Source of the DNA: Spirochaetia bacterium
Lineage (GTDB): Bacteria; Spirochaetota; Spirochaetia; CAKZLE01
Assembly: GCA_963677595.1 (NCBI GenBank)
Contig: OY782041.1
Span: forward strand, 1,664,001-1,728,000
DNA length: 64,000 bases
Direction: 5' to 3'
Shown: one piece after another, positions 1 to 10,343 of the stretch
Numbering within the stretch: the first letter of the stretch is position 1
How the letters are laid out: each line of letters starts with the position of its first letter
Notes under the pieces: generated by a model
What the model saw: only the letters and a program-made list of their open reading frames with translations
Database searches by the model: none
Told to the model about the DNA's origin: nothing
Made by a program: the position numbers and the translations under genes

Positions 1-433
1 TATGCCGATCAGGAGGCACATCATGCAGGGAGCCTGGGGGATCAAGAGCTTTAGGAGAGATTGTTCTCTTACTCGGTACTGGCAGCGTCTTGAGAGCCGA
101 CGGAAGCTTGGTCAGAAAGCATCAGTTGCCATTGCTAATAAGATGCTCTCTATCGGATTCGCTCTGCTGAAGAACGGTGACATCTACCGGATGCCTGACG
201 GGGAACAGTATCTGTTGAAGAAACTGCAATACTATAAACTTGAAGCTCTCGTCGGAACCCGATCCTGGCAGATTAATTCCGATAAGAGCTCAATAACCAG
301 CTAAAGCCAATCTAACGGTTTTAGCCTATCACTAACCACCTCCCCACGCAAGTCCTTATTTTTAAGGTCTCGGAGAATTGTGTCTATTTGAATTGCCAAA
401 ACTTTCTTGTTTATACCCCTTGACATCTACAGA
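1..433 (+). mobile_element. IS110-family element, right part (truncated by the window edge; right boundary approximate)
   Basis: Transposase C-terminus, then about 125 nt of non-coding DNA containing TTGACA (420-425), ending next to a terminator hairpin. Confidence 0.6.
2..304 (+). CDS. IS110-family transposase/recombinase, C-terminal fragment
   Basis: 'IRRHIMQGAW...YWQRLESRRKLGQKASVAIANKMLSIGFALLKNGDIY' matches the IS110 C-terminal 'K.A.VA.ARKL....A.L..G..Y' pattern. Confidence 0.75.
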   Translation: MPIRRHIMQGAWGIKSFRRDCSLTRYWQRLESRRKLGQKASVAIANKMLSIGFALLKNGDIYRMPDGEQYLLKKLQYYKLEALVGTRSWQINSDKSSITS

Positions 434-471
434 CAAATAAAATAGAACAGCCGCCCTTCTCAGGGCGGCTG
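434..471 (-). terminator. Rho-independent terminator of the pilus cluster
   Basis: CAGCCGCCC-ttctca-GGGCGGCTG (448-471), followed on the minus strand by TTCTATTTTATTTG. Confidence 0.8.
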
Positions 472-491
472 CAGGTATATTCACAGGTTGG

Positions 492-983
492 TTAGTTAGC
501 AATTACGGATAACGTCAGGATGTCTGAATACCTTGAGCTCGTCTCTGCGAGACTGCCGGCTTCATAGGCGATGGCAATATTGCCAGCCATGGTATAGTCA
601 GAATTCTGGACATGTCCTACACCATGATCGAGTGCTACAACTTCATCACCGAACAGAATGTCGTATCCGATGGTCTCATCAGAATCTGATGAGGTCAGGT
701 ACGGCGTGCCTTCTGAACTTGAGGCAGCATTCCTTGACGAAATCTCTACAGTATAACCAGTAGTTTTCGTTGAATTCTCTTTGATAGTTCCCACTTGGGT
801 CCTACCGCTTTCGCTGTCGAGAGATACGCTGGAAGAAAGGGTATCATTCAGTATTACAAGGTCAGCTCTCTCAGGTACATAACCACGGAGTACAAGAGTT
901 CCTGATGTAGCGGCAACGGTCGTTCCCAGAAATAAAACCATGTAAAGAAGAATCACTAACGAGGTTTTCATTTTAGTACGCAT
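492..983 (-). CDS. Chaperone-usher pilin subunit (single domain, minor pilin)
   Basis: Signal peptide, N-terminal donor-strand-like 'GTLVLRGYV', C-terminal 'YSDILTLSVIAN' strand; lies in the usher cluster. Confidence 0.75.
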   Translation of the reverse strand: MRTKMKTSLVILLYMVLFLGTTVAATSGTLVLRGYVPERADLVILNDTLSSSVSLDSESGRTQVGTIKENSTKTTGYTVEISSRNAASSSEGTPYLTSSDSDETIGYDILFGDEVVALDHGVGHVQNSDYTMAGNIAIAYEAGSLAETSSRYSDILTLSVIAN

Positions 984-1192
984 CTTGGTACCCCTTCGTG
1001 TGTGATTTTTCTTACTTTTTACGTAGTTTATTTTTTAATGGTTTTTTGCAATATCTGTTTTACTATCTACTTTTTTCTATTATTCCCTCCCTGTGTATAC
1101 CTGCATACATAATACACCTGCAGGGGAAGAATATCTAGGTAAAAATGTGAGAGTGCTGAATAATTTATTACAAAAACAATAATGTAATCAGG

Positions 1193-2245
1193 TCAATTCC
1201 CGATGATGGTGAAAGTCAGGTAGTCGTAGTAGTCACCGGCAGGAACGAAATCGATCAAGGAACTGATCTGTATATCAATGGGGTAGCGGTCACCGGGTGA
1301 AGATGATGCATCAGCATACGGAACAAGGGAAGCCGGACTACCTGGTGAAAGCGGGTGCCAAACGTTTTCAAAAAAGAACTTATACTCCACATACGCATCA
1401 ACGGTCTCATGCTTCAGTTTGCTGCCGTAGGTCGACTGTACTTCAATGGAATAAGGGACCAGGGCTTCGATGATCAGATCGGCTTGTTGGACCTCATCTG
1501 GATCGAGCGTCCCGAAATTCATGGAATAGGGTGTGGAGGTGAATTCAAAAGCGCCGTCATGTTCTATGATCGAGGAGTTGATGGAAGCAGCGGCGTAGGT
1601 GTTGTAGGAAATGACCTGTGAATCGAGCAGTTCCAAGTTAGGCAGGTCTGCAAAGGTGAGCTCAGTCTGGGGGCCGTCCCCGGCAAGGTCAAGCAGTCCC
1701 CAGAGTTCCACGGTGAGTGACTGGTCTGAATAGGTGCCGGTGCTGATATACTGCCCAGCTGGAATCTCGAACTCGAATGAACTGTTGGCGGTGAATTTCC
1801 TTGTCTGTCCCCCGACATAGATCGTAAGGAGGTCATTCAAGGATGTCGCATCTGCCTTCGACATCAGGACGTTCCTTGAGCTGATGGAGTCATACAGCTG
1901 GTAATTGATGCTGTAACCGCCCTGGGAGATAGTTCTTTGGAGATAGGACCCTGAATCCCCTTCAGAGACCCCGATGACCAGCCAGTCGACCGGGATCGTC
2001 TTGTTCTGGTTGACTCCATTGATGGTGATCGATTCATTCGTCGTGATAGTGATACTACCGTCGTAATTATCAGCTGAGATATACGTAGACAAGTTCTTGA
2101 AGGTCGCTATTGACCCCACATACTGTTGTGCTGACACAGATAGCGTGGATATGATAAAGAGAAGAATTATAACGCTTCTGATACCTTTGACAGTTCTCAT
2201 CAGGACTCCAAATACAGACATACTGTCTATTTTGCTGACTGACAT
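1193..2245 (-). CDS. Two-domain SCPU/CsuE-like pilus subunit (putative tip adhesin 2); true start may be further inside the ORF
   Basis: Signal peptide; two repeats ending 'GTYSDQSLTV' and 'AGDYYDYLTFTIIGN'; 'INYQLYD' and 'MNFG' SCPU-like motifs. Confidence 0.7.
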   Translation of the reverse strand: MSVSKIDSMSVFGVLMRTVKGIRSVIILLFIISTLSVSAQQYVGSIATFKNLSTYISADNYDGSITITTNESITINGVNQNKTIPVDWLVIGVSEGDSGSYLQRTISQGGYSINYQLYDSISSRNVLMSKADATSLNDLLTIYVGGQTRKFTANSSFEFEIPAGQYISTGTYSDQSLTVELWGLLDLAGDGPQTELTFADLPNLELLDSQVISYNTYAAASINSSIIEHDGAFEFTSTPYSMNFGTLDPDEVQQADLIIEALVPYSIEVQSTYGSKLKHETVDAYVEYKFFFENVWHPLSPGSPASLVPYADASSSPGDRYPIDIQISSLIDFVPAGDYYDYLTFTIIGN

Positions 2246-2384
2246 ATGGAATGCTGTTATTACCTTGGCAGTATACTTATTATAATTAGTATAATAACCT
2301 TACAAATGAAAAGAAATAGGCTATTATGATCAATTCCCAAAATAACTGCAGTTTACCTTGGGATCCTCTGTTCCTTAGGACTCT

Positions 2385-3386
2385 TCAGTTCCCAATGATC
2401 TCGAACACCAGGCTGTCTGAATAGTCACCTGCGGGTACCCACCCGAAGTCCCCGATGGTGATCGTAAGCGTATGGGCAGTCCCGTATGCATCCGTAGGAG
2501 GAGCATTGGAGATGAGCATGACCGGGTGCTGCGCTGCAGAGAGGTCGCATACCATACCGTCGATGTCGACGGTATAGGGGATGGTCTCTGTCACGGTCGG
2601 GTTCACATGGCTTAAGACACTGCCGTTATAGGAGTAGGCTGAGATGGAGTAGATGGAATTGGAGCATGCTATCGCATCCGCTTTTAGTACCTCCCCGGGA
2701 TAGATCACCCCGAAGTCCATACTGTACCCCTGTGAGTGCGGGTCATACGCTGAACCCATGTCGACGATGCATAATCCGATGCTGTGGTCGATTGTGATGG
2801 TAAGAGGCATGGTTACGTTATCCTCAAGCTCGGAATCATGGTAATAGGAGATCTCGATGGAGTCGGTGTAGGTCCCTGACGGAATATTCTGGCCTGAGGG
2901 GATCTCGAGGATGAAGCTGTGGCTGTATGTCTGGGTTATCGAAGACCTCCCCCCGATCTCAGAAGATGGGAACCGGTAGTAGAGGCAGTCCTCAAGAGAG
3001 GCAGCAGTCTCAGCATCCCGCAGGAGGTTCCGGTCTGTATCATTGTCATAGAGGTTGTAGTGGATGATCTCATTCCCCATGGTGTGAACAGCGTAGCGGT
3101 CGGAGACCGCTCCGCTGTTCCCGGCAGAGAAGTAGACATAGGTGTCTGCCGGGTCGGCAGTCTTCGGGTTATACGCCGTGTTATAGGCTCCCCGCTGTAT
3201 GACCAGCTCGAACTGGGCATGGTCGGTGAACTCCCGCATGTATGTCTCGGTGACCGATACCGGGTACTCCGCTATATCATAATGCTCGAGGATACCGTAG
3301 GCTGCCAATCCCTGCATTGCCAGCAGGAACACGCCGATGAAAATCGCGAGGTGTAGGTGTTGTCTGATTCGTCTGGTCTGCATCAT
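2385..3386 (-). CDS. Two-domain SCPU/CsuE-like pilus subunit (putative tip adhesin 1)
   Basis: Signal peptide; 'IHYNLYD', 'IPSGQNIPSGTYTDSI', 'MDFG' and 'AGDYSDSLVFEIIGN'; paralogous to 1193..2245. Confidence 0.72.
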   Translation of the reverse strand: MMQTRRIRQHLHLAIFIGVFLLAMQGLAAYGILEHYDIAEYPVSVTETYMREFTDHAQFELVIQRGAYNTAYNPKTADPADTYVYFSAGNSGAVSDRYAVHTMGNEIIHYNLYDNDTDRNLLRDAETAASLEDCLYYRFPSSEIGGRSSITQTYSHSFILEIPSGQNIPSGTYTDSIEISYYHDSELEDNVTMPLTITIDHSIGLCIVDMGSAYDPHSQGYSMDFGVIYPGEVLKADAIACSNSIYSISAYSYNGSVLSHVNPTVTETIPYTVDIDGMVCDLSAAQHPVMLISNAPPTDAYGTAHTLTITIGDFGWVPAGDYSDSLVFEIIGN

Positions 3387-3394
3387 GTTTCCTA

Positions 3395-5878
3395 TTAGAA
3401 CTGCTTGTATTCGATCGGGATGATGATATCCTTCGCCTGGAAGATTCCCGTAATCCCCGACGGGATCTCAAGAGTGAACTCTATGCCGTCCCCGGCATAC
3501 AGCGTGACGATGTGGGTCCCGCTGTGGAGTCCGTAGATCTCAAAGGTCCCGTCGTTATAGGTAAAGAAGAATTCGGGGAAATCATCAGGTCCGAGGACTG
3601 CTCCCTGTTCCAGTACATCACCGGAATAGAGTGCTACAGGGGTCCCGTCAGAGAAGAGCATCCTTCCCTGGACCGTGACATTGGCATCCACCCCGATCTT
3701 GACAGTCCCGGCTTGGTGGTAGGCAGGTCGGAAGGTATAGCTGTCTGAACCTATCTCGAAGCCGTCGGGGATCTCGATCGGCTCTATGACGATGGCATGT
3801 TCGGTGAAGGAAGAGAGGCCGTTGATCACGGCGGCACCAACATTATCGGTCCTTCCTTTGTAGGAATTTCCGCTGGGGTTCACCCCAATGACCAGACCTG
3901 GGATCTGTACTTCCGGTGCGACCAGGACAAAGGAGTCGCTGATCGGTCTTGATACCCCGAACAGGCCATCGGCATAGGAGAAGGCGGTGTCCAGCCCAAG
4001 GTCTATCGTGTATACGGAGGAGCTCCCTGTACGGTTCATCTTGAGGTTTGCATCAAGGAGGAAGTCTGAATGCTTGATGTCGGCACTCAGGTTCGCTGAA
4101 TCCGGCAGGGGATCGTCAATGGTCAGGTCGCTCATGTTCAGCCCGAGGGACAGGTTCCCGTTCAGGTTCGTGGGCGTGTAGCTGGCATTCACCGTATTGG
4201 ATCCATCAAGGACATCCTGGTCAGCGCTGATGGAGAAATCAGCGTTCCTCGGGGAGTAGTTCGCTGCTATCTTGAAGGTCGGATTGTAGCTAAGTGAGGT
4301 ATCCCATGCTCCTGTATAGGATGCGGTCACCCCGAACTCTCGGGAGAGTCTCGCCCTCAGGGAGAGAGACAGGGAGGGGTTCACGACAGTACCGTCCTTC
4401 TCGAAGGTGATCCTGCCGGTGGTACTAGCGGAGACTGCTCCGAGGATAGTCTGTCCATATGACCCGGAGAGTTTCCAGGTGTTCGTCTGCGATGCCGCAG
4501 TGTCTGTGTTGCTGAAGGATGTGTAGTGGTCACTGGTATAGGTCCCAGTAAAGGTGTAGGCCCTGTTCACCAATGAGTTGGCATCCACATGGCGGTAGTT
4601 CAGCGAGGCAAGAAGGCCGAGATTCTCATCTGCAGTACGGCTCGCTGCGGTATTGAGTTTGAAGTTTCCAAGATTGGCAGCCCATACAGTAGAAAGCCCG
4701 ATGTTCTGCTGGTTTGTGCCTGCCTGGAAGAAGTATTGCCCGCTCATGTGGTCGCTGATCCCGAAGGTCTGCATGCCGAATACCTCGGGCCAGGTTGTGA
4801 GGTCCCGGTCCTTGAATCCCATACCGAAAGCGTACTCGGTCTGTCCGGGAGGGGTGAGTGCATTGTCATATGCGAACAGGAACTCCTCTGCAGCGACTTC
4901 CTCCCCGTCGGGATCCGTCAGCTGGATCTTGAAATCATTGACGCCGTTGTTGAAGTAGAAGTCATTGATGGTGTACATACCGGCGTTCATGTCAACGGCC
5001 TTGATCCTGCGGTTGTTCAGGAAGATGTTGACCAGGACGTTGTCTTCCGGTACGAGGAAGGAATGGGTGTAGTTAGAATAACTCTTCCGCTTGAAGGAGT
5101 TGGCATAGTTCCTGGAGATGACTGCCCCGAGATAGGCTGGAGAGCTCTGGTTCGGTGCAGCATCATAGGTGATATCGCCGAGCATCAGCCGAAACGGGAG
5201 GTCTACCCAGTCCTTTAGGAGGCGTGCATAGCCGAACGAGAAAGAAGTATCAGAGAACAGCGATGTGGTGAGCCTCGATTCAAGAGTCCAGCCGGAGAAG
5301 TTGAGGGAGGGTTCGAGGATGAAGCTTATGGGGGTCGATATCTCGAAGCTGCTGCTGTCATAGCCCATGGTGATCGACCCGTTTGAATAGATGTTGGTGT
5401 ACATACTGAACCTGCTCGGTTCGATCTCGGGGTATATAAGCGGGTCTTTTGCACCCAACAGCGATATATCCTGGCTCTTGGTGTTCTCCGGCGGGATGAA
5501 CACCTCGATGAGCAGGTCGAGCATGTTGAAGGTCACGATGACAGGGGCATCCTGCAGGTCGGCTATGGCGACCCACTGCTCGGGGTTCTCGGTGAAATAG
5601 GAGAGCTTCTCCTCCGAGATTCGGTCAGTGAGGAAGGATGCAAGTTCAACGATGTCGACCTCGGTATCCATCTCCTCCATCGGCAGGGAGTTGATCTCGC
5701 CGACATACCTCCCGTCTATGAGCAGGGGAAGATAGATCTCCTCAGGAGTGAAGGTAAACTCGAACTCCTGTGCAAATAGAGAGGTGGGTATTACCATTAA
5801 GAGGATAGCTGTTAACAGTAACGAAACAGTATGTAGATGCGCAGGCTTATCTGATGTTCTCCATTTCATACGTAGCAC
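3395..5878 (-). CDS. Fimbrial outer-membrane usher
   Basis: 827 aa, beta-strand rich; 'RLMLGD', 'AGMYTINDFYFNNGVNDFKIQLTD', 'GVSRPISDSFVLV' usher motifs; adjacent to the chaperone. Confidence 0.88.
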   Translation of the reverse strand: MLRMKWRTSDKPAHLHTVSLLLTAILLMVIPTSLFAQEFEFTFTPEEIYLPLLIDGRYVGEINSLPMEEMDTEVDIVELASFLTDRISEEKLSYFTENPEQWVAIADLQDAPVIVTFNMLDLLIEVFIPPENTKSQDISLLGAKDPLIYPEIEPSRFSMYTNIYSNGSITMGYDSSSFEISTPISFILEPSLNFSGWTLESRLTTSLFSDTSFSFGYARLLKDWVDLPFRLMLGDITYDAAPNQSSPAYLGAVISRNYANSFKRKSYSNYTHSFLVPEDNVLVNIFLNNRRIKAVDMNAGMYTINDFYFNNGVNDFKIQLTDPDGEEVAAEEFLFAYDNALTPPGQTEYAFGMGFKDRDLTTWPEVFGMQTFGISDHMSGQYFFQAGTNQQNIGLSTVWAANLGNFKLNTAASRTADENLGLLASLNYRHVDANSLVNRAYTFTGTYTSDHYTSFSNTDTAASQTNTWKLSGSYGQTILGAVSASTTGRITFEKDGTVVNPSLSLSLRARLSREFGVTASYTGAWDTSLSYNPTFKIAANYSPRNADFSISADQDVLDGSNTVNASYTPTNLNGNLSLGLNMSDLTIDDPLPDSANLSADIKHSDFLLDANLKMNRTGSSSVYTIDLGLDTAFSYADGLFGVSRPISDSFVLVAPEVQIPGLVIGVNPSGNSYKGRTDNVGAAVINGLSSFTEHAIVIEPIEIPDGFEIGSDSYTFRPAYHQAGTVKIGVDANVTVQGRMLFSDGTPVALYSGDVLEQGAVLGPDDFPEFFFTYNDGTFEIYGLHSGTHIVTLYAGDGIEFTLEIPSGITGIFQAKDIIIPIEYKQF

Positions 5879-6593
5879 TCAGTTGGCCTTCTTTCAGGCC
5901 TTCGGGCCATGGAACAAGGAAAATTCGTCGCTGCCCCGCCAGGATGTTCTCACCGGCGAATCCCTTCAGCTGATCTGCAGAAAGGGTCACCTGGGATGTC
6001 ACGCTACTACCGGATTTGGAGATGACGGTCACTTCCGGCTGGTACATGATCTGGTGTGTGTTCCCGTCATTCTGCATATCGATGGCAATGAACTTATTAC
6101 CGTTCTCATCCACATGTGCCTTGACCGATTTTAGCTTCAGGTTGTAGTCGAACTCATCAGGGACCACGTACATAGTACCTCGGTAGACAAGCAGGATGTT
6201 AAGGTTCGCACCTTCCTGGGCCTGGTCGAAGTTCAGCGGGAGCTGTTCAGCCTCGATCCTGAAGGGAAGTTCAGTATCGACAGAAGCAGGACCCCTCCAC
6301 TGGACACGTACAGTCTGATACGCCCCTGGTCTCACGACGACCTGCTTGGGATAGATGTAGAAGTAGTTCGAAGCATCCTCAAGCGTCTCTGTACCGTAGA
6401 GATCCATCTCCCTGGTCATAGCACTGATCTGGACACCAATGGTCTTGTCAGTATCGTTGACCACCCTGAACGTCTGCCGTGCGCCGGTCCCTGTAGGATC
6501 GAAATCCTTGGAGATAGGCGTAAACTGGAACGCAAAAAGAGCAGGGAGGATGCATATGAATAGTACGAGCAGGAATAATTTTCTTTGTTTCAT
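5847..6593 (-). CDS. Periplasmic pilus chaperone (PapD/CsuC-like)
   Basis: Signal peptide; 'FYIYPKQVVVRPGAYQTVRV', 'ELPFRIEAEQLP', 'NDGNTH'. Confidence 0.88.
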   Translation of the reverse strand: MKQRKLFLLVLFICILPALFAFQFTPISKDFDPTGTGARQTFRVVNDTDKTIGVQISAMTREMDLYGTETLEDASNYFYIYPKQVVVRPGAYQTVRVQWRGPASVDTELPFRIEAEQLPLNFDQAQEGANLNILLVYRGTMYVVPDEFDYNLKLKSVKAHVDENGNKFIAIDMQNDGNTHQIMYQPEVTVISKSGSSVTSQVTLSADQLKGFAGENILAGQRRIFLVPWPEGLKEGQLSATYEMENIR

Positions 6594-6614
6594 GGCATTA
6601 GTATACTATAGATG

Positions 6615-6648
6615 AAAAAAAGACCCAAGAAAAATCTCGGGCCTTTTG
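6615..6648 (-). terminator. Terminator/attenuator after the major pilin gene
   Basis: Minus strand CAAAAGGCCCGAGA-tttt-TCTTGGGTC followed by T7 (stem includes G-U pairs). Confidence 0.7.
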
Positions 6649-6662
6649 TTTCTTAGCCTTGG

Positions 6663-7178
6663 TTACTGTGCTTCAATTGTAAATGTTACTGTGTCATCGT
6701 AATCGCCTGCAACATAAGTTCCATTATCTGCTGTTACAGTCAACAAAATGTCATAGGCTTCACTTTCGAAAGTAGTATTTGCTGCAGAAGTAAAAAAGAA
6801 AGTAGTATTATCAAAAACAACAGCAGTTCCGCCAAAAGTCAATGAATAAGGAACAAAGAAATCTGCTGTCCCGTCATCATTCAGGAACCTAGCACCATCA
6901 GTTGTATCATAGTTTACACTCGTTGCTTTGATCTTAAAACCTGTTACAGTGTTTGAATCAACAGTTCCAGTCGCAACTAGTAAGTCTGCTTCACCACCAG
7001 AAAGATCAATTGCAGAAGCATTACTATTTGCAGCGATGCTCAATTCAAGAATCTGATCGATTGAACCAGACAGGGCTAATACATCATCGGCAGCATTTGA
7101 ATCAGCGAAAATGGCTCCACTAGCCATAACCAACATAACCAATACGACTAAGACACTTTTGGAAAAACTTTTTTTCAT
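6663..7178 (-). CDS. Major pilin subunit of the chaperone-usher pilus (ORF track starts at 7193)
   Basis: RBS GAGG before ATG 7178; signal peptide; donor strand 'LALSGSI'; C-terminal 'AGDYDDTVTFTIEAQ'; first gene of the cluster and followed by a terminator. Confidence 0.8.
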   Translation of the reverse strand: MKKSFSKSVLVVLVMLVMASGAIFADSNAADDVLALSGSIDQILELSIAANSNASAIDLSGGEADLLVATGTVDSNTVTGFKIKATSVNYDTTDGARFLNDDGTADFFVPYSLTFGGTAVVFDNTTFFFTSAANTTFESEAYDILLTVTADNGTYVAGDYDDTVTFTIEAQ

Positions 7179-7529
7179 GTTTTCTTTCCTCACTTTATGT
7201 AATAATACCTATACTATACTATTTTGGTGCAGCAAAATCAAGAGAAGATTGTAATCAGTACAAGCGAATTATTACAAAATGTAAGGATTTCCATGTAAAT
7301 AAGTTATCTTGGGAGATTAGTGACGCTAAATATGGTGTCCAGTTGCTTTATTCCTATATTCCTGCACAATATCTGCAAATGTAAAAAGAGTGTAAAAATA
7401 TATCATACAGAGTCTTTATGGGAAGGTTTTTTACTGTTTCTTTGCCTGTTTCCCTGTTGTTCCGGGGGGTTCCGTCGTAGAATATGAGTATCCGGGAGGT
7501 TGGTGTCAAGTTCCTCCGGGGTGCATGAA

Positions 7530-10343
7530 ATGAGTAGGTTCCTCTGTTTCCTCATCGGTATGCTCCTCCTGTTCCCCGGCTGTCTCCTCGTGGGGCAGTC
7601 CTTGGGGGAGGCTGTGCCTGAAGAACCCATACACATTGGGATCACCCCTGAACGAGAGCGGCTCAGGGAGAAGATAGCGAGCGGCATCAACTACCTCTGG
7701 TATTTCGGGGACTGGGATGAGGTAGCCCGGGATGAGGAGTACCTGGACATGGCCATGGACTTCGGGCTGGTCCTGCTGCACCTCACCAACAATGATATCG
7801 ACCCGGAGCAGGTGAAAACCCTGCGAAAAGGCCATGACGGGATCTCCGGGACTGCCGATGACGTGCTCGTCATCGGCTACCTCTCCATTGGGGAGGATAT
7901 CAGGACGGATAAGGACCATATGAGTCCACTGGAGGTGGGGGACGGCAGGGGACCGGTCTACTGGGACTATGCGAAGAAGGAGAAGGTCTTCCAGGATAAC
8001 GGCTATCCCTCCTATTACCTCGATGACCGGGACAAGGACGGCCTGCCTGACCGGAACTGGCAGTACCAGGGCTGCTATGCAGACCCGGGCAACCCCGACT
8101 ACCAGCTGATGCTCAAAACCGGGAAGAAGGACGAGGACGGGTTCGTCGGGCTCGACGAGCTCTTCTCCCGCTATGAGTGCGACGGGGTCTTCCTCGATAC
8201 CATGGATGTGGTCAACCCACTCGGCTGGGGGTTCCCCTTCTACTTCGAATGGGTCGCCCCGGGCGGGCAGAAACTCATCGAGCAGTTCAGGGCCTGGTAC
8301 CCGGACAAGCTCATCCTCCTCAATCGGACCCTCGTCTACTTCGACCCTAACGGGACGCAGGAAGACGGCACGCCCTACCTAGGGTCCTGGGGCAAGGATA
8401 TCGAGGATGATATCGACCTCGTCCTCTTCGAGGGGTTCTACTGGCCCGGGGACGAGGTCCGGAACCGGAACTACTGGGCCCCGAAGATCAATGCCGAGGC
8501 AGACCGTACCGGCGGCTTCACCGTCCTCGTCCTCGACTACGTCGGGGACGCCCATATCATGATAGACGGGGACCTCCAGGACTGGATCTGGAACGGGGAG
8601 GTCCAGGAGGGGGTGGAGAAGCTCGATGACGCCCTCATCTGGAGCCGCGGCGTCACCACGCCGAACGAGGCCGAGGATTGCGAGACGAAGGGGATCGACA
8701 TGGTCGACATGTGGATGGCGAACGACCCTGATAACATCAACATGTATATGCGCATAGACCTCGCCGGGAAACCCGACATCGCAGCCTATAACTACTATAT
8801 CTTCCTCGATACCGACCAGGACCGGGGGACGGGGTACCGGAACGGACCCAGTTCCCTCCTGGGTTCGGACTACCTGGTCACCGACCTCAGCAGGGACGGC
8901 TTCTTCCTCTACCGGTATGCGTGCAAGACAGGCCAGGACTCATGGGACTGGGAGCTTGTCGGGGAGATCCCCTCTGCGACCGGCATCCCCTACGGGGAGC
9001 TTGGTTCGATCGAGCTCGCGATACCGAAGGCCCTCGTCGGGGAGCGGGATGTCTTCGACGAGGCAGTGGACCTGGTCCTCTTCACCGAGGATGCGAGCAT
9101 CTACCCCTACCGGACGGACCAGGCCCCAGATGACCAGGAGAAGGACTTCTACCAGTACCTCTCGAGGACCCGTGCCCTGGGCTTCGAGGAGACGATTACC
9201 CGGCAGGGGTGGCTCGCCTATAACAAACCGCTCATCGGCGGGTCGAAGGTCCCGCTGATCAATCTCCATGCCGCCGAGGTCACAGCCCTCCCCGATACTG
9301 AACCACCGGTCTGGGACTCGACTGCGGCATCTCCGGGAGTCGGGAACCCTGCCGCCCCGGTCCCGAGGGTCGGGATCCAGGAGGCAGAACCGGGAGACGG
9401 TTCAGTCACCGTCCGGTGGGACACGGCGCGTGACCGAACACGTCCGGTGACCTATACCATCTACTACAGCACTGATGCAGAATTGAACCCTGCAACAGCG
9501 ACTCAAGTTAAGAATATTGATACGACCACCGCCGGGAGGAACTATTACCAGGGTACAGGACACCGGGATGACTTCCCGAACGTGCAGGGCTCCCCCAATG
9601 GGTTCTACTCGCAGAAGGTCGGGGAAGGAGTCTATCCCTATGAATACACGATCGATGGATTGGAGAATGATAGGACCTACTACTTCATGGTCCGTGCTTC
9701 CGACCATGCGGCTGAGCCGAATACGGAGACCAACTCGGTAGTGCTCTCGGCAACCCCCAGGCGGCCTGTCACCCGTACTATCCGCCTCGACGGTAAGGTA
9801 GGGGATTGGGAGAAGGTCATCCCGCTCGACTTCTCCCCGGGGGAGGTAGCCGACCCCGATACCCTTCCCCCGGAGATTGATATCACGGAGATCAAGGTGA
9901 CCGAGGACCGGGATGAGATATTCTTCCTCATAACCGTCGAGGGTGCTGCTGACTTCGGGAAGTGGCGGGACCAGCTCTCGGTCTACATCGATACCGACGG
10001 GGATAAGACTACCGGCTATGCCGGGGCGTTCGTCCCCACCTTCCCGTGGATGGTCGGTGCGGACTACATGCTCCAGAACGGGAGTCTCTACTCCTATGAG
10101 CCGCTGAACGGATACCGTGTCTGGAACTGGGTCATGGAGGCAGAGAACGGGAAGGGGCAAAGCCGCATGGTCTATACCGACAGCCAGGTGGAGCTCTCGG
10201 TAAAGAAGTCAGCCCTGGGCGATCCTGATGGTATCAGGATCGCGGTCGAGACCGACCGGATCCTCGATGACGGGAGCCATCTCATCGACCGGGTTCCGAA
10301 CGACCTCTTCTCGCACTATTACACGTATACGCTCCTGCAGTGA
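7530..10343 (+). CDS. Secreted/lipoprotein GH114/PelA-like TIM-barrel glycoside hydrolase with an FN3 domain and two repeated accessory domains
   Basis: 'VIGYLSIGE' and 'DGVFLDT' motifs; FN3-like 'SVTVRWD..YTIYY..GLENDRTYYFMVRA'; two copies of 'DG...DW...(F/Y)(L/I)DTD....TGY...G.DY'; N-terminal hydrophobic leader ending LFPGC. Confidence 0.65.
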   Translation: MSRFLCFLIGMLLLFPGCLLVGQSLGEAVPEEPIHIGITPERERLREKIASGINYLWYFGDWDEVARDEEYLDMAMDFGLVLLHLTNNDIDPEQVKTLRKGHDGISGTADDVLVIGYLSIGEDIRTDKDHMSPLEVGDGRGPVYWDYAKKEKVFQDNGYPSYYLDDRDKDGLPDRNWQYQGCYADPGNPDYQLMLKTGKKDEDGFVGLDELFSRYECDGVFLDTMDVVNPLGWGFPFYFEWVAPGGQKLIEQFRAWYPDKLILLNRTLVYFDPNGTQEDGTPYLGSWGKDIEDDIDLVLFEGFYWPGDEVRNRNYWAPKINAEADRTGGFTVLVLDYVGDAHIMIDGDLQDWIWNGEVQEGVEKLDDALIWSRGVTTPNEAEDCETKGIDMVDMWMANDPDNINMYMRIDLAGKPDIAAYNYYIFLDTDQDRGTGYRNGPSSLLGSDYLVTDLSRDGFFLYRYACKTGQDSWDWELVGEIPSATGIPYGELGSIELAIPKALVGERDVFDEAVDLVLFTEDASIYPYRTDQAPDDQEKDFYQYLSRTRALGFEETITRQGWLAYNKPLIGGSKVPLINLHAAEVTALPDTEPPVWDSTAASPGVGNPAAPVPRVGIQEAEPGDGSVTVRWDTARDRTRPVTYTIYYSTDAELNPATATQVKNIDTTTAGRNYYQGTGHRDDFPNVQGSPNGFYSQKVGEGVYPYEYTIDGLENDRTYYFMVRASDHAAEPNTETNSVVLSATPRRPVTRTIRLDGKVGDWEKVIPLDFSPGEVADPDTLPPEIDITEIKVTEDRDEIFFLITVEGAADFGKWRDQLSVYIDTDGDKTTGYAGAFVPTFPWMVGADYMLQNGSLYSYEPLNGYRVWNWVMEAENGKGQSRMVYTDSQVELSVKKSALGDPDGIRIAVETDRILDDGSHLIDRVPNDLFSHYYTYTLLQ

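Follow-up and report, generated by a model that had tools for sequence, protein, structure and literature searches.

Six intact genes, all on the minus strand of a 64-kb stretch of a spirochaete genome (contig OY782041.1; the whole stretch is hereafter the window), encode a chaperone-usher system that probably builds an adhesive surface pilus by non-classical, archaic-like assembly needing no disulfide bond. The genes (positions 492-7193) are co-oriented and free of internal stops. As an operon they work like an archaic chaperone-usher pilus, fail two features of the sigma systems (the pilin disulfide and a domain-2 Tyr of the chaperone), and belong to an Slr0019-type usher clade, where they represent a common and apparently undescribed spirochaete branch of chaperone-usher pili. 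The original prediction, made from the letters of the window, had proposed a complete chaperone-usher set with two paralogous two-domain subunits as tips, built of pilin-type folds, in an apparent spirochaete. All of these points are borne out below, the folds by structural models and the tips as predictions.

The host belongs to the class Spirochaetia, on which its closest ushers and its 16S agree. The closest ushers in the genome collection are those of an uncultured Spirochaetia bacterium (L003, 60% identity) and an uncultured Spirochaetales bacterium (L004, 59%), whose chaperone coordinates are those of G403 and G404, of the same genus as the host (G000). By 16S the host shares 96% identity over 739 nt with the L003 genome; with G210, a genome of the same class that has three FlaA matches, the figure is 87%. 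The host order consists of six genomes, four of which carry the chaperone. The host genome (completeness 95.4%) contains one Omp85 gene, one usher match and one chaperone match, and no FlaA match was found in it.

Subunit folds and the canonical disulfide

The usher matches PF00577 with 37.5 bits (cut-off 27.1) over profile positions 5-533 of 549, and the linked, PapD-like chaperone matches PapD_N (PF00345) with 26.2 bits (cut-off 23). SCPU (PF05229, cut-off 22.4) gives 27.6 bits on the first two-domain subunit (2385-3386) and 19.9 bits, i.e. below cut-off, on the second (1193-2245), and the two are paralogous (32% over 283 aa, E 7e-23). No Pfam pilus family matches either single-domain pilin of the window, which are related to each other by phmmer (E 6e-5 to 5e-4), and NCBIfam names none of the six operon proteins. 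A third single-domain pilin gene stands alone, far from the operon (G000:C1:3982317-3982811; L011:8306-8824, minus strand); its product has no Cys, is the top family-profile match in the host genome (E 1e-35), and could be an alternative shaft subunit served by the usher of the operon.

The candidate major pilin (6663-7178) models as a chaperone-usher pilin. In the AlphaFold2 (AF2) model of the mature protein (63 aligned relatives, pLDDT 91), residues 1-18 are unpaired, a short helix follows strand A, and the last strand lies at the C-terminus; this order of strands, rather than the coordinates, suggests an open groove. Foldseek places CfaB at the top (E 1e-5), with CS17, CupE1 and CsuA/B also matched. 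VIA-align gives Z scores of 9.7 to the CfaE pilin domain (root-mean-square deviation (rmsd) 3.1, 121 aligned), 9.5 to CupE1 (rmsd 10.6, 135 aligned), 8.7 to CsuA/B (rmsd 11.8, 131 aligned), 8.7 to CS17, and about 8 to FimG, FimF and PapA, all top values lying close together. The model of the first two-domain subunit (61 relatives, pLDDT 96.7) shows two beta domains with the first strand starting at mature residue 3 and no free N-terminal extension, and its best fold matches are CfaE-CfaB (E 5e-11), CfaB-CfaB fusions and CsuE (1.5e-9). By the established chaperone-usher mechanism, capping a fibre is all that a protein lacking a donor strand can do; because the model has no free donor strand, this subunit is predicted to be a CsuE/CfaE-like two-domain tip. 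Paralogy predicts the same role, as a second tip, for 1193-2245, and the trailing pilin (492-983) probably serves as a minor subunit, an adaptor or a second shaft subunit. Profile searches match CsuE, CupE1 and CsuA/B. Across the spirochaete subunits, SCPU is matched at E<=0.01 by 49/61 two-domain and 7/63 single-domain proteins, and no CS1, CblD or EcpA family match was found in either set.

The cysteine counts of the original prediction stand: none in the major pilin, the usher, 1193-2245 and 492-983, and four in 2385-3386. The chaperone has a single Cys, at residue 14, inside the signal peptide. Mature Cys is absent from 60 of the 64 spirochaete single-domain pilins, with one in 4 and two in none; the corresponding figures for 62 two-domain proteins are none in 46, one in 10, and two or more in 6. 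These counts omit the loci of one family of the class (f12), include the pilin of L141 though it falls outside the clade, and come from related genomes, so that they are not independent events. The canonical Cys pair is kept in 14/16 comparison pilins (7/7 sigma and 7/9 non-spirochaete same-clade), the two same-clade exceptions being Leptolyngbya pilins. In the spirochaetes, the first canonical column holds Leu or Val in 51/64 pilins and the second holds Ser, Thr, Ala or Gly in 64/64. The four Cys of 2385-3386 are not conserved, the L003 orthologue having none.

The canonical pilin disulfide is thus lost, with no pair in any of the 64 spirochaete pilins and no family match to DsbA (DSBA), DsbB, VKOR or Thioredoxin_4 in the host genome at the completeness given above. 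A DsbB match occurs in 2/301 genomes of the class versus 6/14 controls. Of the proposed disulfide-independent lineage, the loss of the canonical pilin disulfide is supported for the spirochaetes; absence of the pair is not peculiar to them, in that EcpA and a CS1-type pilin (Enterobacterales) contain no Cys after residue 22 and the two Leptolyngbya pilins also lack the pair.

Chaperone, usher and spread across the class

The only chaperone matched by the window chaperone in the PDB is EcpB (E 0.003), with whose Arg89 its Arg112 aligns, the numbering offset being fixed by the Ala/Ala/Ala/Ile donor residues in the EcpB alignment. Arg occupies this column in 86/87 spirochaete chaperones, and FimC has Trp. 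A non-classical Arg anchor of this kind is described in the accessible text of PMC4654587. With the invariant Arg89-type residue present, the chaperone is assigned by its sequence to the non-classical (archaic plus alternate) type. At the sigma Tyr196-type motif of domain 2, Asn is found in 81/87 spirochaete chaperones and Tyr in 1, with Tyr in 5/5 sigma rows and in EcpB; the Leptolyngbya and Qipengyuania chaperones also carry the Asn.

A spirochaete usher profile scores same-clade ushers from outside the phylum at 384-615 bits, sigma references at 72-122, classical ushers at 40-75 and alpha ushers at <=13. The high-scoring outsiders come from cyanobacteria, alpha- and gamma-proteobacteria, and records named Gemmatimonadaceae and Methylomirabilota. 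In IQ-TREE trees (LG+G4, hand-chosen subsets of 29-30 rows, CsuD and CupE5 absent), spirochaete and outside ushers form one clade at 99/99 and 98/99, the latter set holding 8 spirochaete and 9 outside ushers. Three trees keep the clade apart from the 5-6 sigma references, and a joint clade with sigma is not rejected (p-AU 0.135, approximately unbiased (AU) test). The 90% cluster P0091, which holds Slr0019 of Synechocystis PCC 6803, scores 517 bits on the profile. Monophyly of the spirochaete ushers is supported at 97/99 in one IQ-TREE tree and unresolved in the other, and therefore no direction of transfer is claimed; in a FastTree run that included a poorly trimmed row (L076, 41% of columns), the spirochaete ushers did not all group. 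Of an uncharacterised lineage, as originally proposed, what stands is an usher outside the sigma references used; the clade is not confined to spirochaetes, since it spans Slr0019/UshA and alpha- and gamma-proteobacterial ushers (98/99). The usher has no PDB match by sequence, and atlas searches returned unnamed clusters with SCPU as the nearest named family (39% and 60% of members), which serve as leads only.

Some loci depart from the common form. The usher at L076:10054-13989 (G460), 1311 aa in length, carries a long additional stretch at its C-terminus, and a tip gene and a trailing pilin gene follow it. In Vibrio and Photobacterium, clade members (L151:2236-8118 and L153:2424-8371) possess a pair of chaperone genes, and their pilins carry the Cys pair. 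L141 (G444:C189:2230-6002), also from a spirochaete, is a sigma-like set of pilin, chaperone and usher that stands apart from the clade.

The system is common in the class. A chaperone profile of seven rows matches 97/401 class genomes, seeds included, with large differences between families (f12, 39/49; f2, 1/43; f5, 0/37; f6, 0/17), and in a larger sample of f12 it matches 160/196 genomes. The rarity suggested by the window usher as a single query (5/401 phylum genomes) was set aside as an artefact of sensitivity. The window had been singled out as the best candidate for an undescribed system; apparently undescribed in spirochaetes it is, rare it is not. A literature search found no publication on spirochaete chaperone-usher pili, with thin coverage of subscription journals and the possibility that supplements tabulate one.

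A co-oriented usher is present in 84 of 86 spirochaete chaperone loci picked to span families. The usual layout is pilin-chaperone-usher-one tip: a single pilin gene with a single two-domain gene is found at 54 of the 64 non-f12 loci, and 8/64 are without one of the two in the stretch examined. Additional genes of these kinds occur among the 64 only in the window (2+2) and L003 (2+3). Tandem two-domain genes are also present in G404 and G407, which brings the number to 4/6 genomes of the host order, and among spirochaete loci tandem tips are found only in the family of the host; nothing relevant on multiple tips was found in the literature. In a Sphingobium operon of the clade the usher is followed by two genes alike in length, the likeness being one of size. 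In f12, which may be the family of Sphaerochaeta, three of four genomes checked show weak matches to pilins at a distance from the chaperone-usher pair.

The f12 ushers themselves (for instance L014:7439-10726, L099-L105, L107, L110, L143-L149) are about 1000-1300 aa long, with a hydrophobic N-terminal segment and a Pro/acidic linker, and are mostly without adjoining pilins. They often lie directly upstream of genes that we take to be V-type ATPase-like subunits. At L015:9-6511 (G374) and L107:837-5286 (G581), about eight small secreted proteins follow the usher, mostly Cys-free and some with weak pilin-profile matches.

Strain variation and surroundings of the operon

Identity to L003 falls from 76% for the chaperone through 68% for the trailing pilin, 60% for the usher, and 49% (1193-2245 against L003:9494-10501) and 43% for the tips to 37% for the major pilin. 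The major pilin gene also has a GC content at third codon positions of 0.25, versus 0.60-0.70 for the chaperone, usher and tips (usher 0.70). In a near-identical strain (usher P0001, 94%), pilin P0009 has an identical 25-residue leader and 36% identity overall. Judged by these sequences, the major pilin is hypervariable between strains. Contigs of run X2, from a co-occurring strain, skip 6672-7102 between matching ends and replace 2663-3474, covering the N-terminal part of the first two-domain subunit, by 816 other letters. In the RNA-library run X1 (marine sediment), one contig lies over 524-1077 and a second joins 6682 to 7103 across 399 other letters. Together the contigs show that alleles are replaced between strains with their ends conserved. 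Within the operon, RNA-library contigs cover only the two single-domain pilin genes; missing cover over the chaperone, usher and tips was not counted as evidence.

Table 1. Features of the operon, in window positions, listed in the direction of transcription.
Feature	Positions	Strand	Basis and remarks
Major pilin candidate	6663..7178	-	Cys-free; signal peptide, then a free donor strand and one Ig domain of pilin type
Terminator-like hairpin between major pilin and chaperone	6618..6647	-	13-pair stem and T run; pattern match only
Periplasmic chaperone, non-classical type	5847..6593	-	248 aa; PF00345 above cut-off; EcpB-type Arg
Outer-membrane usher	3395..5878	-	827 aa; PF00577 above cut-off; trees
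Two-domain subunit 1, predicted tip	2385..3386	-	333 aa; SCPU above cut-off; AF2 model
Two-domain subunit 2, predicted second tip, no Cys	1193..2245	-	350 aa; paralogue of subunit 1; member of alignment A4
Trailing single-domain pilin, no Cys	492..983	-	163 aa; matches profile A3 at E 7e-27
Terminator-like hairpin closing the cluster	447..472	-	11-pair stem, 8 G-C pairs; pattern match only

The open reading frame of the major pilin extends over 6663-7193 (176 aa from GTG at 7193), and the database protein P0008 starts from ATG at 7178 (Table 1). Genes flanking the operon on both sides resemble the L003 flanks, which suggests that the operon was inherited in place. Just beyond the closing hairpin (window 2-304 and L012:9115 onward) lies a transposase gene, presumably IS110-like by its motifs, and run X2 has loose ends at 441-442, so that other strains differ at this place. 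Left of the window (L012:2-3400) lie genes that by their motifs are presumably [FeFe]-hydrogenase maturases, which would fit an anaerobic host. On the other side, divergent from the pilin gene, a 947-aa secreted protein with an fn3 domain is encoded on the plus strand (window 7500-10343), and stands beside the operon also in L003 and L004. Its N-terminal motifs are, we presume, of the PelA/GH114-type hydrolases, which Pfam and PDB searches did not confirm, no useful PDB match being found.

Proposed assembly route, alternatives and known systems

From what is observed directly (the intact genes, the class of the host, the family matches, the absent Cys pair and the allele replacement) we infer the following route. 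Subunits would exit by Sec, and the chaperone would bind the open groove of each, with the Arg89-type residue anchoring its C-terminus and Asn in place of the sigma Tyr196. One two-domain subunit, having no free donor strand, would enter the usher first and cap the fibre, and we propose that each fibre therefore carries either tip 1 or tip 2. The 6663-7178 pilin would polymerise as the shaft by donor-strand exchange and may be made in excess, as proposed on account of the hairpin after its gene, whereas the conserved 492-983 pilin would act as adaptor, anchor or second shaft subunit. Replacement of the A-B strand Cys pair by Leu/Val and Ser/Thr may have come about because the class is almost without DsbB. 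Strains would trade the exposed pilin body and the tip domain, with phages, grazers or binding partners as the selecting agents.

Several points weigh against a pilus assembled in this way. No fibre has been seen. The RNA contigs, all from a single run, might derive from DNA and do not prove transcription. Terminator-like sites (5 found versus 5.4 expected in shuffles) and promoter-like sites (15 versus 9.3 expected, sd 3.4) are near chance; the promoter-like ones in the spaces upstream of 1193-2245 and 492-983 do not exceed it by enough to be used. Subunit 1 has four Cys able to pair, and 6/62 two-domain subunits have at least two. The Leptolyngbya pilins are without the pair though the cyanobacterial control genome has VKOR, so loss of the pair and absence of Dsb genes do not strictly go together. 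Finally, in Synechocystis, of the same usher clade, the connection with a visible pilus is not settled (accessible text of PMC4390875), and an usher mutant still moves and flocculates (accessible text of PMC6755745).

The Synechocystis findings, together with the lack of a FlaA match in the host and the retention by f12 of chaperone and usher in 160/196 genomes with pilin-like genes scattered elsewhere, would suit an operon that exports a coat without fibres or short oligomers at the cell surface, in place of long pili, a role already proposed for certain archaic systems. The pilin-first order with one two-domain gene in 54/64 loci, as in the sigma operons examined, and the rod-forming pilins as nearest folds make this very unlikely. 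An ordinary sigma (Csu-like) operon, unusual only through thin sampling of sigma ushers, would explain the identical gene order and the SCPU matches of the two-domain subunits, and accords with the AU test. It appears unlikely nonetheless, given the wide gap in profile scores between same-clade outsiders and sigma references, the split of the trees at 98-99 support, the Asn for sigma Tyr and the absence of the Cys pair.

The two-domain proteins might instead share one compound tip or insert along the shaft, the first domain opening to donate or accept a strand. This first domain is itself SCPU/pilin-like, best fold matches include the CfaB-CfaB fusions, and the tandem paralogues are kept in 4/6 genomes of the order; on the other hand, the strands of the subunit 1 model begin at mature residue 3, leaving no free extension, and one two-domain gene suffices at most other loci. 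We regard such a compound tip or shaft insertion as the most improbable of these readings. Returning to a disulfide-independent pilus with one tip per fibre, it is possible, though we advance it only tentatively, that it belongs to an ancestral, unnamed Spirochaetia branch with no periplasmic disulfide system, a choice of tips per fibre and exchange of shaft cassettes behind a fixed signal peptide, the f12 version being a near-core secretion platform in which an usher with an N-terminal membrane anchor serves scattered pilins.

With members in roughly one in four sampled Spirochaetia genomes and in most of f12, the family would give these organisms an attachment organelle. It also offers a natural test of pilin folding without DsbA and a source of Cys-free fibre scaffolds, and for the clade of Synechocystis UshA, itself an unresolved system, it provides an operon that is complete and linked.

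Reviews (accessible text of PMC10104325) report archaic chaperone-usher pili from proteobacteria, cyanobacteria and Deinococcota. The window operon shares with the classical type 1 and P pili the overall route and the FimG, FimF and PapA fold matches, but differs in usher score, in the Trp of FimC at the Arg89 column, and in the Cys pair that FimA keeps. The alternate (alpha) pili CFA/I, CS17 and ECP resemble it in their Cys-free major pilins (EcpA, CS1-type), in the top Foldseek matches CfaB and CfaE-CfaB, and in EcpB as best chaperone match, whereas their ushers barely score on the profile, their CS1, CblD and EcpA families are absent from the spirochaete subunits, and the CS1-type operon examined has the chaperone first. 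Csu (Acinetobacter baumannii) and CupE (Pseudomonas aeruginosa) share the order pilin-chaperone-usher-tip, profile or fold matches to CsuA/B, CsuE and CupE1, and the Arg89-type anchor; an A'-A''/B-B' twin hairpin and a zigzag rod are described for archaic sigma pili (accessible text of PMC9452303), and CupE1 has the canonical disulfide (PMC10104325, likewise). The window differs from them by the missing disulfide, by Asn for the domain-2 Tyr, by an usher outside the sigma references used (CsuD and CupE5 not in the tree), and by the two or three tips in the family of its host. Its nearest relative among studied systems is CccS/CccP/UshA of Synechocystis PCC 6803 (slr1667, slr1668, slr0019), consisting of an SCPU subunit, a PapD_N chaperone and a PF00577 usher (accessible text of PMC4390875), a likeness that rests on the usher (same clade, 98/99), CccS and CccP being outside the comparison. 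The Slr0019 system has been studied genetically with the pilus left unsettled (PMC4390875, PMC6755745 and bioRxiv 10.1101/130278, each in its accessible part). There the usher is unlinked, no structure is available and the identity of the pilus is unsettled, whereas the window presents a linked six-gene set with two two-domain genes.

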